Shown: positions 1,271 through 48,760, numbered from the stretch's first letter. The stretch: DNA of 64,000 nt from Candidatus Omnitrophota bacterium (GCA_043808095.1 JAZDFF010000031.1:101073-165072), one strand, 5' to 3'. Numbers and translations are program-made. The notes: generated by a model not told the origin, from the letters alone.

Positions 1271-1320
1271 TGAAGGATATTTTTTGTTAAAAAGTACGCG
1301 AAAAAGTGGATGCGATGGTT

Positions 1321-1410
1321 CCCTGCCGGCCCTTAGGAATTTTACATTGTAAAATTCCAAGGACTAAGTCCCGGAAATTCTTCGAATTTCTCGGGGCAGG
1401 CAGGGATTCC
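1321..1410 (+). repeat. MITE-like structured repeat, family A copy 1 (TIR CCCTGCC(G/T)GCCC … GGGGCAGGCAGGG; internal hairpins GGAATTTTACA-TTG-TAAAATTCC and GGACTAAGTCCC)
   Basis: Near-identical to 23890..23965. The derived copy at 48268..48330 shares only the terminal segments, and the reverse-orientation copy at 52975..53050 shares the central GGACTAAGTCCC and GGGAATTCTCCGAATTCC hairpins. Confidence 0.6.
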
Positions 1411-8492: not shown

Positions 8493-9590
8493 ATGAAAAG
8501 GATAAAAATATCTCTAGGCAGCCGCAGTTATAATATCCTCATTGGAAGAGGTGTTTTATCTAGACTTGGTGAGTATTTGAAGGTTTTAAATATTGGGGAA
8601 GATGCCGTTATAATTACAAATCGTACAATTAATAATCTATATGGATTTCGTCTAAAAAGAGTATTAAAAGAAAGTGGGTTCTCAACAAAAATAGACGAGG
8701 TTCCTGACAGCGAAGAAAGCAAGTCTCAAAAAATAGCGCTGTCGCTAATTAACCGTATTGCAAACTATGACCTCAGAAAAAGGTTGTTTATTATTGCCTT
8801 TGGGGGAGGGGTAATAGGGGATTTATCCGGTTTTATTGCCTCAATTTATAAAAGAGGCATCCCTTATATCCAGATACCTACAACGTTACTTGCCCAGGTA
8901 GATTCTGCTATTGGAGGAAAAACTGCGATAGATCTAACTGGTGGGAAAAACTTAGTAGGCGCATTTTATCAACCGCGCCTCGTATTATCGGACATAGACT
9001 TTTTGTCTAGTCTAAGCAGAAGTCAAATGGTTTCAGGTTTAGCAGAGGTCATAAAATACGCCGTTATTAAGGACTCCGTATTATTTCATTATCTAAAGAA
9101 AGAATATAAAAATATACTTTCTTTTAAAAAAGTTCCCTTAGAATATACTGTTTATAAATGCGCCCAGATAAAGGCGAGGATCGTAGAACAAGATGAAAAA
9201 GAAATCAAAGGCAAAAGGACGATTTTAAATTACGGCCATTCTATCGGCCATGCTATTGAGGCCGCCTCCGGGTACAAAGGATATAGCCATGGCCAGGCCA
9301 TAGCTATAGGTATGGTTATTGCAGCCGAAATCTCTTATAAGCTAAATATACTTGATAAAAAATCGTTTCAAGAAATTAAGGAGTTAATTAAGGCATTAGG
9401 GCTTCCAACAAAGGCAAAAAGCGTGAGCTTGTCTTCCATGGTAAAAGCTCTTTATCATGATAAAAAATTTATCCATGGAAAGAATAGATTTGTCTTACCA
9501 AAAAAAATTGGGGAAGTTATTATTTGTGAAGATATACCGACAGAGCTGATTGAAGAGACCTTAAGAGGCAAAAAAAGTATAGGAATTTAG
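8493..9590 (+). CDS. aroB: 3-dehydroquinate synthase
   Basis: GGGVIGDLSGFIAS…DSAIGGKTAIDL…AFYQP signature blocks. Confidence 0.85.
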   Translation: MKRIKISLGSRSYNILIGRGVLSRLGEYLKVLNIGEDAVIITNRTINNLYGFRLKRVLKESGFSTKIDEVPDSEESKSQKIALSLINRIANYDLRKRLFIIAFGGGVIGDLSGFIASIYKRGIPYIQIPTTLLAQVDSAIGGKTAIDLTGGKNLVGAFYQPRLVLSDIDFLSSLSRSQMVSGLAEVIKYAVIKDSVLFHYLKKEYKNILSFKKVPLEYTVYKCAQIKARIVEQDEKEIKGKRTILNYGHSIGHAIEAASGYKGYSHGQAIAIGMVIAAEISYKLNILDKKSFQEIKELIKALGLPTKAKSVSLSSMVKALYHDKKFIHGKNRFVLPKKIGEVIICEDIPTELIEETLRGKKSIGI

Positions 9591-11551: not shown

Positions 11552-11946
11552 TGACGCAGAATTTTAAAGAGAAAAGAAGACACCCCAGGATAGAAAAAAA
11601 CGTCCCTCTAAAAATTAAAGACGAGCAGTTTGATATTATAACCGAAACTAAAAACATCAGCTGCTCTGGAGCATATTGCCAGGTTAATAAGTTCTTACCC
11701 GCCATGACAAAAGTAAGGGTAACTCTACTACTGCCTTTGTTATCGGTTAATAACAAGATTATTACCAAAAAGATTAGATGTAAAGGCATAGTGGTACGCT
11801 CTGAACCAGATAAGCCGGTATTGGTTAATGAAAAATACAGCATAGCTATATTTTTCAATGACATATCTGCGAAGGATATGGCTAATATCGCCGAATATGT
11901 AAATTTTCACATTGATAAAACACGCTCAAGGATTACGGCAGGATGA
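11551..11946 (+). CDS. PilZ-domain protein (second copy)
   Basis: RRHPRIEKNVPLKI and NISCSGAYC motifs. Confidence 0.65.
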   Translation: MTQNFKEKRRHPRIEKNVPLKIKDEQFDIITETKNISCSGAYCQVNKFLPAMTKVRVTLLLPLLSVNNKIITKKIRCKGIVVRSEPDKPVLVNEKYSIAIFFNDISAKDMANIAEYVNFHIDKTRSRITAG

Positions 11947-12638
11947 AAAAGTCGGCGGTAACTATTGTCCTATTTTTTAGCATCATATCAGGCATCCCCA
12001 TAATTTCTAGCGCAATGTCCACCGAGATACTCCTTCCTAAGTCAGACACAAAAATAAACGTTTCTTTGCTTGAGGCGCTTCAAAAAAGAAGTTCTTGCCG
12101 AAGATTTAAAAACCAGCCTTTAAACAAGGCTCAAATTTCACAGATCCTCTGGGCAGCAGGGGGCCAAAAACCAGATAATAGTTTGCCAGAGAAGACTAAC
12201 CGCACTATACCTTCTGCCGGGGCAATTTATCCCCTGGAAATATTCATCTTGATCGGAGAAAACTCTGTCCCGGGGATAAAGGCCGGTCTTTATCAATACA
12301 ATGTATCAAAACACAGCCTCATTATCCGTTTGGCTCAAGATTTAAGAAAAGAGTTGGTGCAGGCGTCTTTAAATCAGATGTTCATAAAAGATGCACCTAT
12401 TTCAATAATTATCTCGGCGCAATATAATCGAACTACATCCCGTTACGGAGAAAGAGGGACCCGCTATGTACACATGGAAGCGGGACATTCCTGTCAGAAC
12501 ATATACCTCATAGTTGAAAATTTGGGACTAAAGACTGTTGAAGTTGGTGCATTTAGCAACGAAAAGGTAAAGAAGGTGCTTCAGCTTTCTGACAATTTAG
12601 AGCCACTTGCCATTATGCCTGTCGGTTATTCGGATTAA
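11943..12638 (+). CDS. SagB-type dehydrogenase / nitroreductase-family protein with N-terminal signal/anchor
   Basis: SCRRF…AGAIYPLEIF…GTRYVHMEAGHSCQNIYL blocks of the SagB/ThcOx nitroreductase superfamily. Confidence 0.6.
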   Translation: MKKSAVTIVLFFSIISGIPIISSAMSTEILLPKSDTKINVSLLEALQKRSSCRRFKNQPLNKAQISQILWAAGGQKPDNSLPEKTNRTIPSAGAIYPLEIFILIGENSVPGIKAGLYQYNVSKHSLIIRLAQDLRKELVQASLNQMFIKDAPISIIISAQYNRTTSRYGERGTRYVHMEAGHSCQNIYLIVENLGLKTVEVGAFSNEKVKKVLQLSDNLEPLAIMPVGYSD

Positions 12639-28829: not shown

Positions 28830-29139
28830 TTTATATCATAAATGTTGGGGAGTGTCAATAATATTAAAATTTTTTACACCGCAAAGGCGCAAAGAAAAAT
28901 TTTACCCTTTCCCGCTCAATAATCTTTTATCTATCGGGATCCCGCTCTGCGGGAAAAGGCGTATATCAGAACATCAGGAGATCAGTAAGCAGGATATCAG
29001 AATGCCGGGAGAGTTTTGGCTTAAACCTGATACCCTGTTCTTCTGATATTCTACCCACTGATTCCCTGATATGCCGATAACCGTTTTTAGAGAGTTTTAT
29101 ATTTTGCGATTTTGCGGAACTTTTGCGATTTTCCCGCTC

Positions 29140-29200
29140 AGCTATTTAGAAGTTCGGGCGGGATCCCGCTTATTAGCGGGAAGCGGTGTAGTTATGAAGG
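29140..29200 (+). repeat. intergenic repeat family C (TTTAGAAGTTCGGGCGGGATCCCGCTTATTAGCGGGAAGCGGTGTAG)
   Basis: Repeated at 48695..48755 (+) and, diverged and inverted, at 57120..57190. It contains the GGGATCCCGC palindrome also seen at 13240 and 28930. Confidence 0.55.
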
Positions 29201-30751
29201 CCGCTTAATCGGTTTATTCAGATAATCAGGAACCGGCCTCTCTATTAATTTATAAAAATTTGACAAGTGCCTGCGAAATAAAGAATCAAAACTCGGAACA
29301 TCGTCGCCATACCACCAGAACCAGTCGCTGCCCTCGGCAACATAAATCTGTTTCCAGGCTAATTCCATGGACTGTGGACTGTGGACTGTGGACTGAGATA
29401 ACTCTTCCCTCGCCTTGGCCAGGTATTCCCAGGCCAGATTTTTTTCATAGTTACCTATCCATTTGGTAAAATCGGCATTTATCCAGCTCCCGGCAGAGAT
29501 CTTGTTAAGTTTCGGCTCATGGGGGTGCATATTAAGGTATTCGCTTACGGTCACCGTTTTTAATTCGGGGTTTTCGCTTATACGCTTATAAATACCGCTA
29601 AGAAAATCCCAGCCGTCATTAGGATAATATTCCCAGGCATTTTCTCCATCTAAGGCTATGGTTATCAGGCCGTCCTGGCCTTCTAAAAGAAGCATGGCGT
29701 CATCCAATGATTTCATAAAATCATTAATGGCCTCTTCTGTCTTATAGCGGTGATAGACAAATCCAATTTTATTAGAGATGTTACTATCTCTAAAAAGGAT
29801 GTTGAGATGTCCGCTGTCGGCTTCTATGCTGTAGGGCCTATAAAGGATTGATTTTTGAGGCTTAGTCTTTCTTAGAGATTTAAAAAGGATTGCCTCATCC
29901 GTAACTACCCAGTTTATTTTGGCCTCGGCGATAAAAGGCAGGATATGGCTGTTAATTGCCTGTTCTGAAGGCCACATGCCACTACAGGCGCGGTTAAAAA
30001 CCTCTTGGTATAACTTAAGCGCCGCATCGATATGATATTTAATATCTTCAGGGTGGCGGAATAACACCTTGGGAATGACGGTCTTGGGGTTAGCCTCAAT
30101 AGCGGATTTATTATTATATAATAAAGGCAATATCGGATGGTAATACGGAGTTATGGATACTTCAATTTGCCCGGCATCCTGGAATTTCCTATAGGCGGGT
30201 AAAACCTGGCCGATGATTTCGATTTGTTTTTTTAGGACTATATTTTTTTCTTCTTCGCTAAAGAACCTGCCTTTTCTTACGATGGCCGTCAATTGCGTAG
30301 ATTCTTTTCTAAAAAGGGAGTCTATCCAGGCCAGGTTAAACCAGACCTGCAGGTCCAGGAAATCCTGCGGATTAAATTCAAGGTTAGCCTGTTTTTTTAG
30401 ATATAATTCACAGTAGCGAGGGTGTATGGATATTATTCTTTCAGGGTCAGCGCTAAAAAAATTTTCCAGGATGAATTTCTTTTCATCCGTGGAAAGCTCC
30501 CTTGAATTTTTTAGGGAGAGTTCGTAAAACCTCTCTTTAAAATCGCCTTTTGCATAATCCTGGATCTGTTCAATTAATGAGGGAACTAGATTAAAGGTCT
30601 GATGTATTTTAGGAAAACCTTCAAGGATGCGCACCATATCCAGATAGTCTTTTACGGCGTGCAACCTTACCCAGGGAAGGTGAAATTCCCCCGTGAGGAG
30701 GTCTTTATAATAAGGCTGGTGCATGTGCCAGATGAAGGCGACGTATAACAT
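29192..30751 (-). CDS. glycoside hydrolase family 57 enzyme (GH57 glucan branching enzyme/amylase-like)
   Basis: MLYVAFIWHMHQPYYKD N-terminal hallmark of GH57. The 519-aa size matches Thermus-type GH57 branching enzymes. Confidence 0.75.
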   Translation of the reverse strand: MLYVAFIWHMHQPYYKDLLTGEFHLPWVRLHAVKDYLDMVRILEGFPKIHQTFNLVPSLIEQIQDYAKGDFKERFYELSLKNSRELSTDEKKFILENFFSADPERIISIHPRYCELYLKKQANLEFNPQDFLDLQVWFNLAWIDSLFRKESTQLTAIVRKGRFFSEEEKNIVLKKQIEIIGQVLPAYRKFQDAGQIEVSITPYYHPILPLLYNNKSAIEANPKTVIPKVLFRHPEDIKYHIDAALKLYQEVFNRACSGMWPSEQAINSHILPFIAEAKINWVVTDEAILFKSLRKTKPQKSILYRPYSIEADSGHLNILFRDSNISNKIGFVYHRYKTEEAINDFMKSLDDAMLLLEGQDGLITIALDGENAWEYYPNDGWDFLSGIYKRISENPELKTVTVSEYLNMHPHEPKLNKISAGSWINADFTKWIGNYEKNLAWEYLAKAREELSQSTVHSPQSMELAWKQIYVAEGSDWFWWYGDDVPSFDSLFRRHLSNFYKLIERPVPDYLNKPIKRPS

Positions 30752-30759
30752 AATTTAAA

Positions 30760-30821
30760 TCCCAATAATTACCAATAACTACCAAATTCCAATGAAATCC
30801 CAATTTCCAATTTATAGACCA
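30760..30821. repeat. CCAAT-rich arm (left) flanking four-helix-bundle gene; ~10-11-nt phased CCAAT repeats
   Basis: cccaataattaccaataactaccaaattccaatgaaatcccaatttccaattt. Its inverse ATTGG-rich partner lies at 31176..31250, and both arms recur fused at 34783..34910. Confidence 0.55.
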
Positions 30822-31175
30822 TTATTTGGTTTTCTTGGTATTTTCGATAATCGAACTCAAAATGTTTTTAATCTCATTTGCTTCTTGGATATCTCTAGCA
30901 ATTTTTTCTTTATCAATGTATTTTCCAGAAATAAGCCTCAACCAATATCTACTCTCTTTTGCCTCTCTTCTGGCTATGCCCATCTTGTTTATAAAATCCT
31001 TCTTGCTTAAAGCGCCGTCTGCTTCTTCAACATTTGCGCCTACCGAAGTCCCTGCCTCAGTAAGTTGTTTACGAATTACATCGCATTCAACTGCCCGAGG
31101 TAACATAGCCACTATTTCTAAAACCCTTTGTGCAAATTTAAAAGTCCTGTCTTTTATATCATATTCTTTGGCCAT
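30822..31175 (-). CDS. four-helix-bundle protein (TIGR02436 / 23S rRNA intervening-sequence protein family)
   Basis: 117-aa all-helical protein with the family pattern …FAQRVLEIV…LTEAGTSVGANVEEA…FINKMGIARREAKESRYWLRLI. Confidence 0.7.
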   Translation of the reverse strand: MAKEYDIKDRTFKFAQRVLEIVAMLPRAVECDVIRKQLTEAGTSVGANVEEADGALSKKDFINKMGIARREAKESRYWLRLISGKYIDKEKIARDIQEANEIKNILSSIIENTKKTK

Positions 31176-31250
31176 TATTGGTATTTATTGGAGATCGGAC
31201 ATTCATTGGTATTATTGGTATTTATTGGACATTGAAATTCATATGTAACA
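31176..31250. repeat. ATTGG-rich arm (right) flanking four-helix-bundle gene
   Basis: ttggtatttattggagatcggacattcattggtattattggtatttattggacattgaaattcat. It is an inverted counterpart of 30760..30821. Confidence 0.55.
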
Positions 31251-31303
31251 AAAAACCCCCGAGAGTGTTAGCCCCCGGGGGTTTTAAGCTTACATAAGCT
31301 GTC

Positions 31304-34236: not shown

Positions 34237-34752
34237 CTAATACTTAATCAACGAATAAGCCGGATAACCTTTTAGTTTCCTGCGGCCGCCTAAATCGGTC
34301 AGCTCAATTAAAAATACGATACCTGCGACTTTAGCTTTAAGTTTCTCGACCAGCCTAACTGTAGCATCAACTGTGCCGCCCGTAGCCAGTAAATCATCCA
34401 CAATCAGAACCCTGGCACCTTTTTTTACGGCATCCTTATGAATTTCCAGGGTATCTTTTCCGTATTCCAGTCCGTAAGTAGCGCTATAAGTCTTAGCGGG
34501 AAGTTTCCCTTTTTTTCTTACCGGAACAAAACCCGCGCCGAGTTTATAAGCGACAGCCGCACCTAAAATAAAACCCCGCGCCTCTACTGCCACCACCGTA
34601 TCAATCTGTTTTCCCACAAATTTTTGGGCCAGGAGGTCTACTGCCAATTCAAAGCCGTCTTTGTCCTTAAGCAGGGTGGTTATGTCGCGAAAAAGAATAC
34701 CTTTTATGGGAAAATCAGGGATACTGCGGATGTAGCTCTTTAAGTCCATCAT
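34237..34752 (-). CDS. apt: adenine phosphoribosyltransferase
   Basis: [14 protein letters not shown]…[17 protein letters not shown]-binding motif, and a 171-aa size. Confidence 0.85.
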
Positions 34753-34782: not shown

Positions 34783-34910
34783 GCCCGATTATCCAATAAG
34801 TACCAAATCCCAATTAATTACCAAGTAACCAATTTCCAATTAAAATTGGACATTAGGATTTTGAAATTCATTGGTATTTATTGGATATTGAGAATTGGTC
34901 ATTTTCATAC
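34783..34910. repeat. cargo-less copy of the CCAAT/ATTGG inverted-arm element (imperfect ~125-nt palindrome centred on CCAATT-AAA-ATTGG)
   Basis: The left half ccaataagtaccaaatcccaattaattaccaagtaaccaatttccaatt matches 30765..30815. The right half …gaaattcattggtatttattgga… matches 31195..31245. Confidence 0.5.
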
Positions 34911-34973: not shown

Positions 34974-35825
34974 TTATGTCCTCATTTGGCACGATTTGCG
35001 TTTGATTAAGCGAGTGGGCAGAATTATCTTCACCGGGGTCTTTTGTCTTTTTATGACAACTTGGTTTAAATTCTCTAAGGCAAGCCTGCCCATCTCCATC
35101 AATGGCTGGCTTACAGTGGTAAGGGGAACCGGGCTATATACGCTTAGGGGATTATCATCAAACCCGATTATGGAAAGTTGTTCGGGGACTTTTATCTTCA
35201 GGTTTTTGGCTGCCTCCAGGACTTCAAGTGCCATGACGTCGCTTGCGGCGAATATGGCCGTAGGAGGATTTTTGGATTTGAGCAGCTCCTCTGCGGCAAG
35301 CCTTGCCGGCGTCCTCAGGAATTCGCCGTTTTTAACAAGGCTATCCTCTATCTTTAAATTGTGTCTCTTTAAGGCCTCCTTGTAGCCTTCCAGTCTTTTT
35401 TTGGCGGCCTCGGTGCTCATATTTCCGCAAATTGTGGCGATCCTCTTATGGCCTAATTCTATCAGATAATCCAGCGCGGAAATTGCGCCGGATTTATTAT
35501 CAATAGATATGCAATTTATCGGGCCGGTGACAAAATTATTCATTACCAAAAACGGGATGTCTTTATTTGCAAACTTTTTTATAACCTGGATTTGCCCGTT
35601 TATATCCGCGAATATTATCCCGTCTAAATATTTGGGACGGGCCAGCAATGAGGCCACCCAGATATCCGAAGAAAGACTCTCGGTGATATGGATGGTGACA
35701 TCGGCCTTAAGGCGGCTGGCGGCAATAGTCACTCCCCGGATAACCTCGCAGGCATAAAATGAATGAAAGATATCTTCAAAACGGTGGATTATTAATCCGA
35801 AAACTTTATTTGGTCTTTCTACCAT
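34974..35825 (-). CDS. LacI-family sugar-binding (periplasmic-binding-protein type 1) domain protein lacking an N-terminal HTH
   Basis: It aligns to the ligand-binding core of LacI/PurR-type regulators (…IIGFDD…), but the ORF starts directly with the core and no HTH is present upstream in frame. Confidence 0.5.
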   Translation of the reverse strand: MVERPNKVFGLIIHRFEDIFHSFYACEVIRGVTIAASRLKADVTIHITESLSSDIWVASLLARPKYLDGIIFADINGQIQVIKKFANKDIPFLVMNNFVTGPINCISIDNKSGAISALDYLIELGHKRIATICGNMSTEAAKKRLEGYKEALKRHNLKIEDSLVKNGEFLRTPARLAAEELLKSKNPPTAIFAASDVMALEVLEAAKNLKIKVPEQLSIIGFDDNPLSVYSPVPLTTVSQPLMEMGRLALENLNQVVIKRQKTPVKIILPTRLIKRKSCQMRT

Positions 35826-48255: not shown

Positions 48256-48267
48256 TTTTTTGACACC

Positions 48268-48760
48268 CTGCCTGCCTGCCCTTAGGAATTTTACAAATTG
48301 CAGATGGCGAATTTCTCGGGGCAGGCAGGCGTAAAAACGCCCGCCTACGCTAAAGCTTCGGCGGGCAGGCGCTAAAATGCAAAAAAAATCCCTGCCTGAC
48401 GGCAGGCAGGCGCAAAAACGCAAAATCATTTACCCGCCTTCGCAGAAAGCTACGGGCGTAAGCCCGTAGATGAATGCGTACAGTGGTGGGTATCCGCCAA
48501 AGATTTGTGGCGGATATGCTTCGGCGGGTTTCGCCGAAGCATGTGAAGAAGCTACAGCCGTAAGGCTTTAGAGCTTCACTTAGAATTTTTGCGCCTTTGC
48601 GGTAATTTTACGTCCTTCGATAAATGCTTCAACTTCGCTCAGCACTATTCGACGCATCGTGAGCTTGCCGAACGGCTCAGGACACATTTCCCGCTTTGCC
48701 ATTTAGAAGTTCGGGCGGGGATCCCTCTTATTAGCGGAAAGCGGTATAGGCTGGTTGGTT
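48268..48760. repeat. composite GC-rich intergenic repeat region: truncated family-A MITE (48268..48330), mini-palindrome CCCTGCCTGACGGCAGGCAGG (48389..48410), CCGCCA-N8-TGGCGG palindrome (48485..48504), family C repeat (48695..48755)
   Basis: Each sub-element matches copies elsewhere in the window (1321, 32993, 32931, 29140). Confidence 0.55.

Follow-up and report, generated by a model that had tools for sequence, protein, structure and literature searches.

Thousands of PF05635-type proteins bear the annotation "four helix bundle protein". To our knowledge they have had no known function since 1993, when members of the family were reportedly found in intervening sequences (IVSs) of Leptospira rRNA, and Avd is the only relative of theirs that is understood. 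What, then, is a gene of this family doing between two protein-coding genes of a Candidatus Omnitrophota bacterium, enclosed by two arrays of short repeats that are inverted copies of each other? The locus lies in a stretch of 64,000 nucleotides (GCA_043808095.1 JAZDFF010000031.1:101073-165072), which was analyzed as a whole and is referred to here as the window. All genes around the cassette are on the minus strand, and the parts that matter to the argument are the following.

31176..31245, minus strand: 5′ arm of the cassette, with six CCAAT/CCGAT units (sequence, cluster statistics and alignment to relatives).
30822..31175, minus strand: four-helix-bundle (4HB) gene, 117 aa, PF05635 / TIGR02436 (HMM and structure model).
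30752..30821, minus strand: 3′ arm, inverse to the 5′ arm, its ATTGG/TTTGG units lying at 30757-30813 (conserved across cassettes).
34783..34910, unstranded: gene-less hairpin, a 5′-arm-type half fused to a 3′-arm-type half (homology to both cassette arms).
~31251..31290, minus strand: intrinsic-terminator-like hairpin of the porin gene, a G+C-rich hairpin followed by a T-run (read from sequence).
29192..30751, minus strand: GH57 glycoside hydrolase gene, the downstream host gene (Pfam PF03065 and synteny).
32698-31304, minus strand: Alginate_exp-type porin gene, upstream of the cassette.
34974-35825: LacI-like gene, one flank of the gene-less hairpin.
34237-34752: apt, the other flank of the gene-less hairpin.

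In the direction of transcription, the porin gene is followed by its terminator-like hairpin, the 5′ arm, the 4HB ORF, the 3′ arm and the GH57 gene. The 5′ arm opens with CATATG (31245-31240) and directly abuts the 4HB start codon, with no Shine-Dalgarno sequence; the GH57 start codon (30751-30749) is 5 nt past the end of the 3′ arm. The porin terminator-like hairpin forms the outer 5′ boundary of the cassette and is present at empty sites too, the same hairpin standing before GH57 in loci L173 and L174 and before the cassette in L094-L096; a scan for consensus terminators omitted it because its loop exceeds 8 nt. Within the arms, the promoter and terminator scan gave no signal over background. 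No rRNA match was obtained in the 64-kb window, which contains two tRNAs only, and the cassette is bordered by the porin and GH57 genes, not inserted in an rRNA gene. Rfam searches at permissive E-values returned no family for the arms or the hairpin of the window, nor for 12 other cassette loci. Neither a reverse transcriptase nor template/variable repeats were detected beside the 4HB gene, whose neighbors are porin, GH57, PHP, apt and other genes, and a search for a long direct repeat pair near it found none. Terminal inverted repeats of the kind that define MITEs are present at the cassette, and the window holds two arm-bearing copies, the cassette and the bare hairpin, 3.6 kb apart.

The repeat clusters are easily delimited. 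On the plus strand, CCAAT occurs five times at 30762-30811 and ATTGG five times at 31177-31228; at 34793-34898, four CCAAT copies are followed by four ATTGG copies about a CCAATTAAAATTGG center. The sole other cluster in the 64 kb is a three-copy one within the porin gene. CCAAT is under-represented in the window (150 observed vs 194 expected), yet it forms three clusters of four to five same-strand copies; in 300 first-order Markov simulations the maximum same-strand count per 55 nt was 2-3 and once 4, against an observed 5. Aligned with the cassette arms, the two halves of the gene-less hairpin are identical at 52/61 and 47/56 positions (z 6.4 and 7.3), and none of 1000 shuffles was as good. 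The original prediction of a four-helix-bundle gene set between a CCAAT arm and its inverse ATTGG arm is thus borne out, motif clusters and HMM scores agreeing, as is that of a gene-less, fused pair of the same arms between apt and the LacI-like gene; the alignment that it proposed of arms against hairpin proved significant. The objection that it raised against itself, chance AT-rich similarity with no other copies, fails on the simulations and shuffles and on the copies found in other genomes. On the other hand, a uniform CCAAT phasing of ~10-11 nt was not recovered. Unit spacing in the window is 10, 17 (that is, 10 + 7 via a CCAAA unit), 11 and 7, and across the clade CCAA/TTGG spacing is bimodal, at 6-7 and 10-11 nt; helical phasing of the array, as had been proposed, is accordingly dropped as a uniform property, there being no constant helical repeat.

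The encoded protein is a clear member of its family, and its sequence is 100% identical to that of a protein from a Candidatus Omnitrophota MAG. The ORF scores 88 bits against TIGR02436 (cut-off 24) and 73.1 bits against PF05635 (cut-off 33.8), the latter being its only domain, and carries no nuclease motif. A phmmer comparison with the Bacteroides structure PDB 2RLD gives E 3e-21, and the AlphaFold model (pLDDT 94.7, four helices) superimposes with TM 0.82-0.88 on 2RLD and 0.71-0.86 on 2GSC from Xanthomonas; it also resembles the Avd of diversity-generating retroelements (DGRs), including the Avd in the RT-RNA particle 8UB7. There are five chains in 2RLD, and the Xanthomonas homologue is a homopentamer (PMC4990558); from these homologues we infer that the protein of the window is probably pentameric as well. 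The ORF is intact and under purifying selection (dN/dS 0.06-0.15 vs orthologues). An origin in a phage or a defense system was considered and set aside: PADLOC gave no match, PHROG a weak match to Avd only, and a single relative was present among 2.9 million viral contigs.

Comparison with related genomes indicates how the cassette came to its present site. In five related genomes (L001/L093 and L094-L096), a 4HB protein 79-86% identical to that of the window is encoded at the same site upstream of GH57, between arms of the same sequence but with other unit numbers, 2-7 on the 5′ side and 6-12 on the 3′ side; among these 3′ arms, one has a duplicated 31-nt block and another an inserted 70-nt hairpin. 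A copy 75% identical (L003) is situated at the junction of two ABC-transporter permease genes and has five upstream CCAAT units and five downstream ATTGG units, and further copies (55-73% identical) occupy a DegT/epimerase junction, a DivIC/MgsA junction and other places, with CCAAA/TTTGG variants of the units. By contrast, L173 and L174 share the gene order of the window (PPDK, sigma factor, (LacI-like), apt, tRNA, PHP, porin, GH57 and the genes beyond it), their GH57 being 59% identical, and lack the insert: the porin-GH57 spacer is 91-98 nt long and consists of the terminator hairpin and ~40 nt; arms and 4HB gene are both missing from it, and no 4HB gene occurs elsewhere in these 21-kb loci. 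In L174, the one of the two that retains the LacI-like gene, the LacI-apt and GH57-next gene spacers measure 2 and 15 nt, respectively, and the bare hairpin is absent from the LacI-apt junction. L175 is also without the cassette even though its GH57 is 68% identical, that is, as near to the window as those of the cassette-bearing relatives. Presence at the GH57 site is hence sporadic: window, L001/L093 and L094-L096, not L173, L174 and L175.

The cassette and its flanks also differ in apparent age. Between the window and L001, dS is 0.455 for the 4HB gene (third-position identity 79%) vs ~3.0 for GH57 (49.5%) and 2.7 for the next gene, and protein identity is 86% for 4HB vs 68% for GH57. Because of the empty sites, the copies at unrelated loci and a dS of 0.46 vs ~3 in the flanks, the conclusion that the cassette is an insertion relative to related Omnitrophota genomes, and a horizontally exchanged unit, is well supported by these sequence comparisons. 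The low dS of the 4HB gene would reflect either a late exchange between lineages into the same site or strong constraint on synonymous sites; either cause is unusual in a gene of 117 codons, and part of the effect could come from such constraint and not from recent transfer. The original prediction of a small mobile cassette with a solo copy therefore stands as regards an inserted and exchanged unit; as for a mechanism of mobility, no transposase was found in or beside any examined cassette, and there is no clear target-site duplication. TATG stands at each outer end of the cassette in the window, L094 and L113, and L003 has ATATGA there; however, an ATG at the 5′ end is conserved in 12/19 cassettes and TATG is palindromic with the stem base. 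A target-site duplication is suggested but not established, since the palindromic stem base and the intrinsic 5′ ATG also explain TATG; the empty sites are too diverged for placing the insertion junction.

The arms have not drifted with the rest of the sequence. In cassettes at different loci, the aligned arms are homologous over ~55 nt, the 5′ arm reading ...CCAAATACTACCAAATCCCAAATAAATCCAAAATCCCAAATCCAAAA and the 3′ arm TTTGGGATTTGGAAATTGGGATTTATTTGGTAGTATTGGTA.TTATTGGGATTT. Against shuffles, the 5′ arm of the window matches those of L094, L095, L096 and L003 with z 6-15, and its 3′ arm is conserved in cassettes of different loci with z 11-15. Relative to L094 and L095, the synonymous sites of the ORF are saturated (dS 1.5-1.7, third-position identity 57%) while the arms are ~90% identical, and the conservation extends to L003, which is a different locus. 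Judged from these alignments, selection acts on the arms: their conservation is well in excess of the neutral rate, and their sequence is kept far beyond what pairing requires. In one of the sub-clades, an SD+ATG stands before the 5′ arm, which is open and in frame, with no start codon near the conserved core; as far as the reading frame tells, the 5′ arm of this sub-clade must be translated, as an N-terminal tail of ~25 residues.

The architecture is a general one. Eighty homologues were collected, with one genome per species, from Omnitrophota, Bacteroidota, Chloroflexota, Cyanobacteriota, Patescibacteria, Planctomycetota, Desulfobacterota, Ignavibacteria, Margulisbacteria and other groups, and 75 loci entered a test for a 5-mer with two or more copies in the 90 nt upstream of the gene and two or more copies of its reverse complement in the 90 nt downstream. 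This inverted pattern was found at 51/75 homologues vs 47/1639 random-position controls (3%), and with at least three copies at 25/75 vs 1/1639; a 5-mer in direct orientation at two or more copies was found at 13/75. The plan is the same and the motifs are lineage-specific: CTAAAT/ATTTAG, TTCGAAAT, CAGAATG/CATTCTG, AATTAAC/GTTAATT, CAATGGT and GAAGGGT, with TAACTCC in Nostocales. Arm k-mer similarity rises with protein identity within and between phyla alike (rho 0.27, p 1e-42 across phyla), and in MAGs of Desulfobacterota and Chloroflexota the proteins reach 80% identity and lie between similar arms. Across these loci, the arm motif tracks the protein and not the host phylum, and since arm similarity follows protein identity from phylum to phylum, the gene and its arms travel together. 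Both neighboring genes have the orientation of the 4HB gene at 45/60 loci and the opposite one at 1/60. None of the collected loci has a cassette inside an rRNA gene; a lone 23S-like 16-mer in L089 has no Rfam support. Neither this family-wide generality nor the IVS-like pairing of the arms figured in the original prediction.

Gene-less relatives of the arms also occur in other genomes. Close to the cassettes of L029, L036, L039, L042, L049, L061, L005/L103 and L105/L111 there are hairpins made up of the same motif as the cassette there, and in L099, L125, L127 and L169 a full hairpin lies directly 3′ of the gene. The hairpin of L105/L111 retains the ribosome-binding region along with the 5′ arm and then passes straight to the 3′ arm, which gives it the appearance of a cassette whose ORF was lost by internal deletion. 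Inverted repeats about a gene, with gene-less doublets of the same repeat elsewhere, are also the layout of REPIN-RAYT systems.

At the RNA level, the arms of the window can pair. A fold of the whole cassette brings them together (z -4.15) in helices of 17, 7, 6, 8, 6 and 6 bp with small bulges between them, so that, as in an IVS, complementary termini enclose the insert; the joined arms fold at -49.8 kcal/mol (z -7.8), and in 13/13 cassettes the joined arms form a long hairpin with z -3 to -9. The bare hairpin folds at -31.2 kcal/mol (z -2.1) on the minus strand and -34.1 kcal/mol (z -3.1) on the plus strand. The two arms of a cassette suit each other better than those of other cassettes, with mean duplex energies of -39.3 kcal/mol for own pairs vs -28.3 kcal/mol for cross pairs and a median DNA alignment score of 40 vs 20, 27/76 own pairs lying beyond the cross-pair 95th percentile. 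At the base of the window stem, ACAUA (31246-31242) is predicted to pair with UAUGU, which holds the GH57 start codon.

As to the strand on which the arms act, RNAduplex weakly favors the sense strand (48:27, p 0.035), in the window with -59.5 vs -46.3 kcal/mol for antisense and 11 vs 2 G·U pairs. However, an unbiased count of arm mismatches gives no sense-strand excess of G·U-compatible changes (67 vs 58, p 0.47), clade-wide folds are equally good for sense and antisense with no strand bias, and RNAalifold applied to 13 joined-arm sequences returns no in-register consensus stem (-0.73 kcal/mol). The stem is broken every 6-17 bp. Arm mismatches are mostly transversions, and CCAAA units often stand opposite ATTGG units, so that many opposed units fail to match at their fifth position; perfect pairing is therefore not the conserved property. 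Given the null mismatch count and the unbiased per-cassette folds, no claim of RNA-level selection is made from sequence alone, and as regards a role at the RNA or at the DNA level, the null mismatch test and the like folding of the strands appear to favor neither decisively.

The reading that we prefer, tentatively and at somewhat less than an even chance, is that of an IVS-type cassette in an mRNA operon junction, in which the 4HB gene lies within inverted CCAA(T/A) arms of ~60-70 nt and is accompanied by an ORF-less hairpin 3.6 kb away. A cassette with no evident promoter of its own would be read through from the host operon and co-transcribed, and the arms would pair in the transcript as a long, imperfect stem of ~50 bp from which the 4HB mRNA is looped out. 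This picture is drawn from the folds, the orientation bias, the tight operon positions and the precedent of rRNA IVSs. By analogy with the rRNA IVSs of the same family, the stem would be a probable substrate of RNase III, and its processing may be what renders the element tolerable both in rRNA helices and between closely spaced genes. As the stem base covers the GH57 start codon, GH57 translation would be affected when the stem is processed or opened. The stem alone leaves the short repeats, the conservation of their sequence and their co-variation with the protein unexplained; for this reason a second inference is added, namely that the CCAA/TTGG units may be recognition sites of the encoded pentamer, whose relatives, the Avd proteins of DGRs, bind RNA as pentamers. 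The binding platform for the carried protein that the original prediction proposed is plausible in view of arm sequences kept far beyond the needs of pairing and of arm motifs that co-vary with the protein across phyla. Several observations weigh against an IVS-type reading, namely the null G·U test, the equal strand folds, the lack of a consensus stem, the translated 5′ arm and the interrupted stem.

An unlikely alternative is that the arms act at the DNA level only, as the repeats of a non-autonomous transposon (a cargo MITE) whose transposase is encoded elsewhere, the hairpin being an internal deletion and the RNA stem a by-product. Presence and absence at syntenic sites, inverted termini conserved at unrelated loci, the ORF-less copies of L105/L111 that retain both arms and even the ribosome-binding region, wobble-type mismatches without strand bias, a cassette younger than its flanks, and TATG at both ends in the window, L094, L003 (as ATATGA) and L113 would all be expected of such an element. 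However, no examined cassette contains or adjoins a transposase, and TATG is also accounted for by the palindromic stem base and the 5′ ATG of 12/19 cassettes. Nor does this alternative predict the 45:1 bias toward co-orientation, the conservation of arms at a fixed locus where synonymous sites are saturated, or the strong purifying selection on what would be mere cargo. Improbable too, as judged from the sequences, is that the arrays are primarily a protein-binding platform, on which a pentamer would occupy five to seven RNA or DNA units and regulate its own gene and those adjacent to hairpins, complementarity being secondary; TRAP and HutP, which bind repeated triplets, are the model for such a platform. 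It would account for the sequence-level conservation of the arms, a motif that follows the protein instead of the host phylum, the five to seven units per arm in the window lineage, a 5′ arm that abuts or overlaps the start codon, a fold family that is pentameric and binds RNA in the DGR particle, and bare hairpins that share the motif of the local cassette in several genomes. It sits poorly with the irregular spacing (6-7 and 10-11 nt) and with unit numbers that range from 2 to 12 among orthologues, and on its own it leaves the reverse-complement second arm unexplained, the inverted pattern being found at 51/75 loci vs 13/75 for the direct one.

It is also tempting to speculate, though we rate this as distinctly improbable, that protein and arms together form a two-component replicator resembling RAYT and REPIN, without a recognizable nuclease, in which the protein specifically binds the repeated units of its own arms and of the bare hairpins, these being either RNA or DNA extruded as hairpins. 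Binding would then drive excision, protection or re-insertion at transcribed junctions near start codons, perhaps with the aid of host RNase III or a reverse transcriptase, and rRNA IVSs would be the subset that landed in rRNA helices. Two simpler accounts carry far less weight. One-sided C/A-rich arrays do occur just before GH57 where there is no cassette (CCTAA three to four times in L173, CTCAATA three times in L175), as would be expected if the arms were ordinary Omnitrophota leader or intergenic sequence, for example C/A-rich translation-enhancing leaders, that flank the gene by accident; but at unrelated loci and in other phyla the arms accompany the 4HB gene, and they are missing from empty sites and are inverted copies of each other, which makes this very unlikely. 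It is scarcely credible that the arms resemble each other by chance, through AT-rich low complexity: short motifs and an AT-rich region speak for it, but the Markov simulations never reached the observed clustering, no shuffle attained the arm-arm or arm-hairpin alignment scores, and the arms are conserved in other genomes.

The 4HB gene is normally one part of a package that includes two matched inverted repeat arrays and that moves among genomes and phyla, leaving gene-less hairpins behind, and an orphan annotation thereby becomes a defined genetic element. The rRNA IVSs may be, we suggest, a special case of broader elements that ride in host transcripts; in that event, some of the short intergenic repeat hairpins of uncultured phyla would be cassette derivatives. 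There is also a practical warning for annotation, as N-terminally extended 4HB gene calls often take in the 5′ arm. In the literature, as far as our incomplete coverage of it extends, we found no description of repeat-flanked 4HB cassettes in operon junctions, and no account of lineage-specific arm arrays that co-vary with the protein or of matched gene-less hairpins.

The rRNA IVS with an ORF and a terminal stem is already known. In Coxiella, an ORF of the same family lies within a 28-bp terminal stem that is cut by RNase III; excision by this enzyme is known for the IVSs of Coxiella, Leptospira and Salmonella, and ORF-less IVSs are common (PMC4990558). In CPR bacteria, the same ORF is found in 16S and 23S rRNA insertions (PMC11270868). 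The cassette resembles the rRNA IVSs of Leptospira, Coxiella burnetii and CPR bacteria in its PF05635 ORF, its enclosing, stem-forming termini, its sporadic occurrence and horizontal acquisition, and the existence of ORF-less versions. Unlike them, it is located between protein-coding genes of an operon-like string and not in an rRNA gene, and its arms are 60-70 nt of 5-nt units, whereas the IVS stem is a near-perfect 28 bp; excision by RNase III has been demonstrated for IVSs, whereas processing of the cassette is a prediction by analogy. The Avd protein of DGRs has the same fold and belongs to the same superfamily, and forms a pentamer that holds RNA together with the reverse transcriptase (PDB 4DWL, 8UB7); by contrast, the 4HB gene has no adjacent reverse transcriptase or template/variable repeats, and its product is ~17% identical to Avd.

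Two further systems combine inverted repeats with neighboring genes. The Correia elements of Neisseria are co-transcribed intergenic inverted repeats; RNase III binds or cuts them, and they change the expression of adjacent genes (PMC2649163). The bare hairpin at 34783-34910 resembles such short, MITE-like inverted-repeat elements beside genes; Correia elements, however, have a TA target duplication and no associated protein gene, whereas the full form of the cassette carries a conserved gene. In REPIN-RAYT systems, a gene lies between inverted repeat copies, gene-less inverted doublets occur, and each gene has its matching type of repeat (PMC3116915, PMC3337134). The cassette shares with them the flanking inverted repeat, the gene-less doublets elsewhere and the matching of repeat and gene. 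By contrast, RAYT is an HUH (Y1) tyrosine transposase and the cassette protein a four-helix bundle of 117 aa, and the 4HB cassettes, unlike REPIN-RAYT, cross phyla.

Between the window and L001, a relative that also carries the cassette upstream of the GH57 glycoside hydrolase gene, the four-helix-bundle (4HB) gene is far more conserved than the neighboring enzyme gene: identity is 86% for the 4HB protein (30822-31175) and 68% for GH57 (29192-30751), and dS is 0.46 for the 4HB gene versus about 3 for the adjoining GH57 gene. In L001, the truncated 5′ arm is adjoined by a GCCGGCAGGCAGG string related to another palindromic element, CCCTGCC(TGCC)...CCCTTAGGAATTTTACA...GAATTTCTCGGGGCAGGCAGG, which is present in two copies in the window (1320-1406 and 48265-48330).

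The other flank of GH57 in the window carries a paired array of a different sequence.

28955-29088: array hairpin of a second kind in the 363-nt spacer downstream of GH57, with four ATCAG units set opposite four CTGAT units

As RNA, this hairpin folds at -67.9 kcal/mol (z -6.6), and the spacer that holds it is only 15 nt long in the syntenic L174, an Omnitrophota locus without the cassette. A closely similar array hairpin is found on the Pirellulales contig L085 (about 8955-9056), and no 4HB gene bearing ATCAG/CTGAT arms was seen. Small repeated hairpins with CGGGATCCCG lie on both sides of the ATCAG hairpin (29165-29195 and 28935-28960), and in L001 a similar one is inserted into the cassette's 3′ arm (545-620).

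In two further Omnitrophota loci without the cassette, a short, one-sided, C/A-rich array abuts the GH57 start codon from upstream, consisting of CCTAA/CCAAA repeated four times in L173 (9960-10000) and CTCAATA repeated three times in L175 (690-727); these arrays may serve as leader elements or be what is left of arms. In L173, GH57 is followed by a 470-nt spacer (11560-12020) with long paired segments rich in G+C (GGGTGG...GACAGGACCC). Such segments recur before the porin gene, and they may represent a structured RNA that lacks annotation or a further family of repeats.

In one sub-clade of 4HB loci (L099, L104, L105, L110, and L116), the 5′ arm is free of stop codons and in the same frame as the 4HB gene, a Shine-Dalgarno sequence and an ATG precede the arm at its outer end, and a start codon near the conserved core is absent. 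With this arrangement, translation must include the arm, giving the protein a P/N/K/S/Q-rich tail about 25 residues long (e.g., MKNPNVKYYQIPSKSQ...), which accounts for the 139-152-aa versions of the protein in databases.

In other phyla, tRNA genes, one of them tRNA-Sec, directly adjoin several cassettes. Some genomes contain two 4HB genes, either in tandem or no more than a few kb apart.

L033, 4299-4392: cassette and tRNA gene side by side
L056, 3799-3885: cassette and tRNA gene side by side
L079, just downstream of the gene: cassette and tRNA gene side by side
L028, 10360-10480: paired 4HB genes
L086, 10470-10715: paired 4HB genes
L019, L027, and L043: paired 4HB genes

The same AATTTTG array stands between the two genes of L028. 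In four Nostocales loci (L063, L066, L080, and L088), no clear inverse array was found upstream of the 4HB gene; downstream of it are long runs of TAACTCC or similar heptamers, similar to the short tandemly repeated heptamers of heterocystous cyanobacteria.
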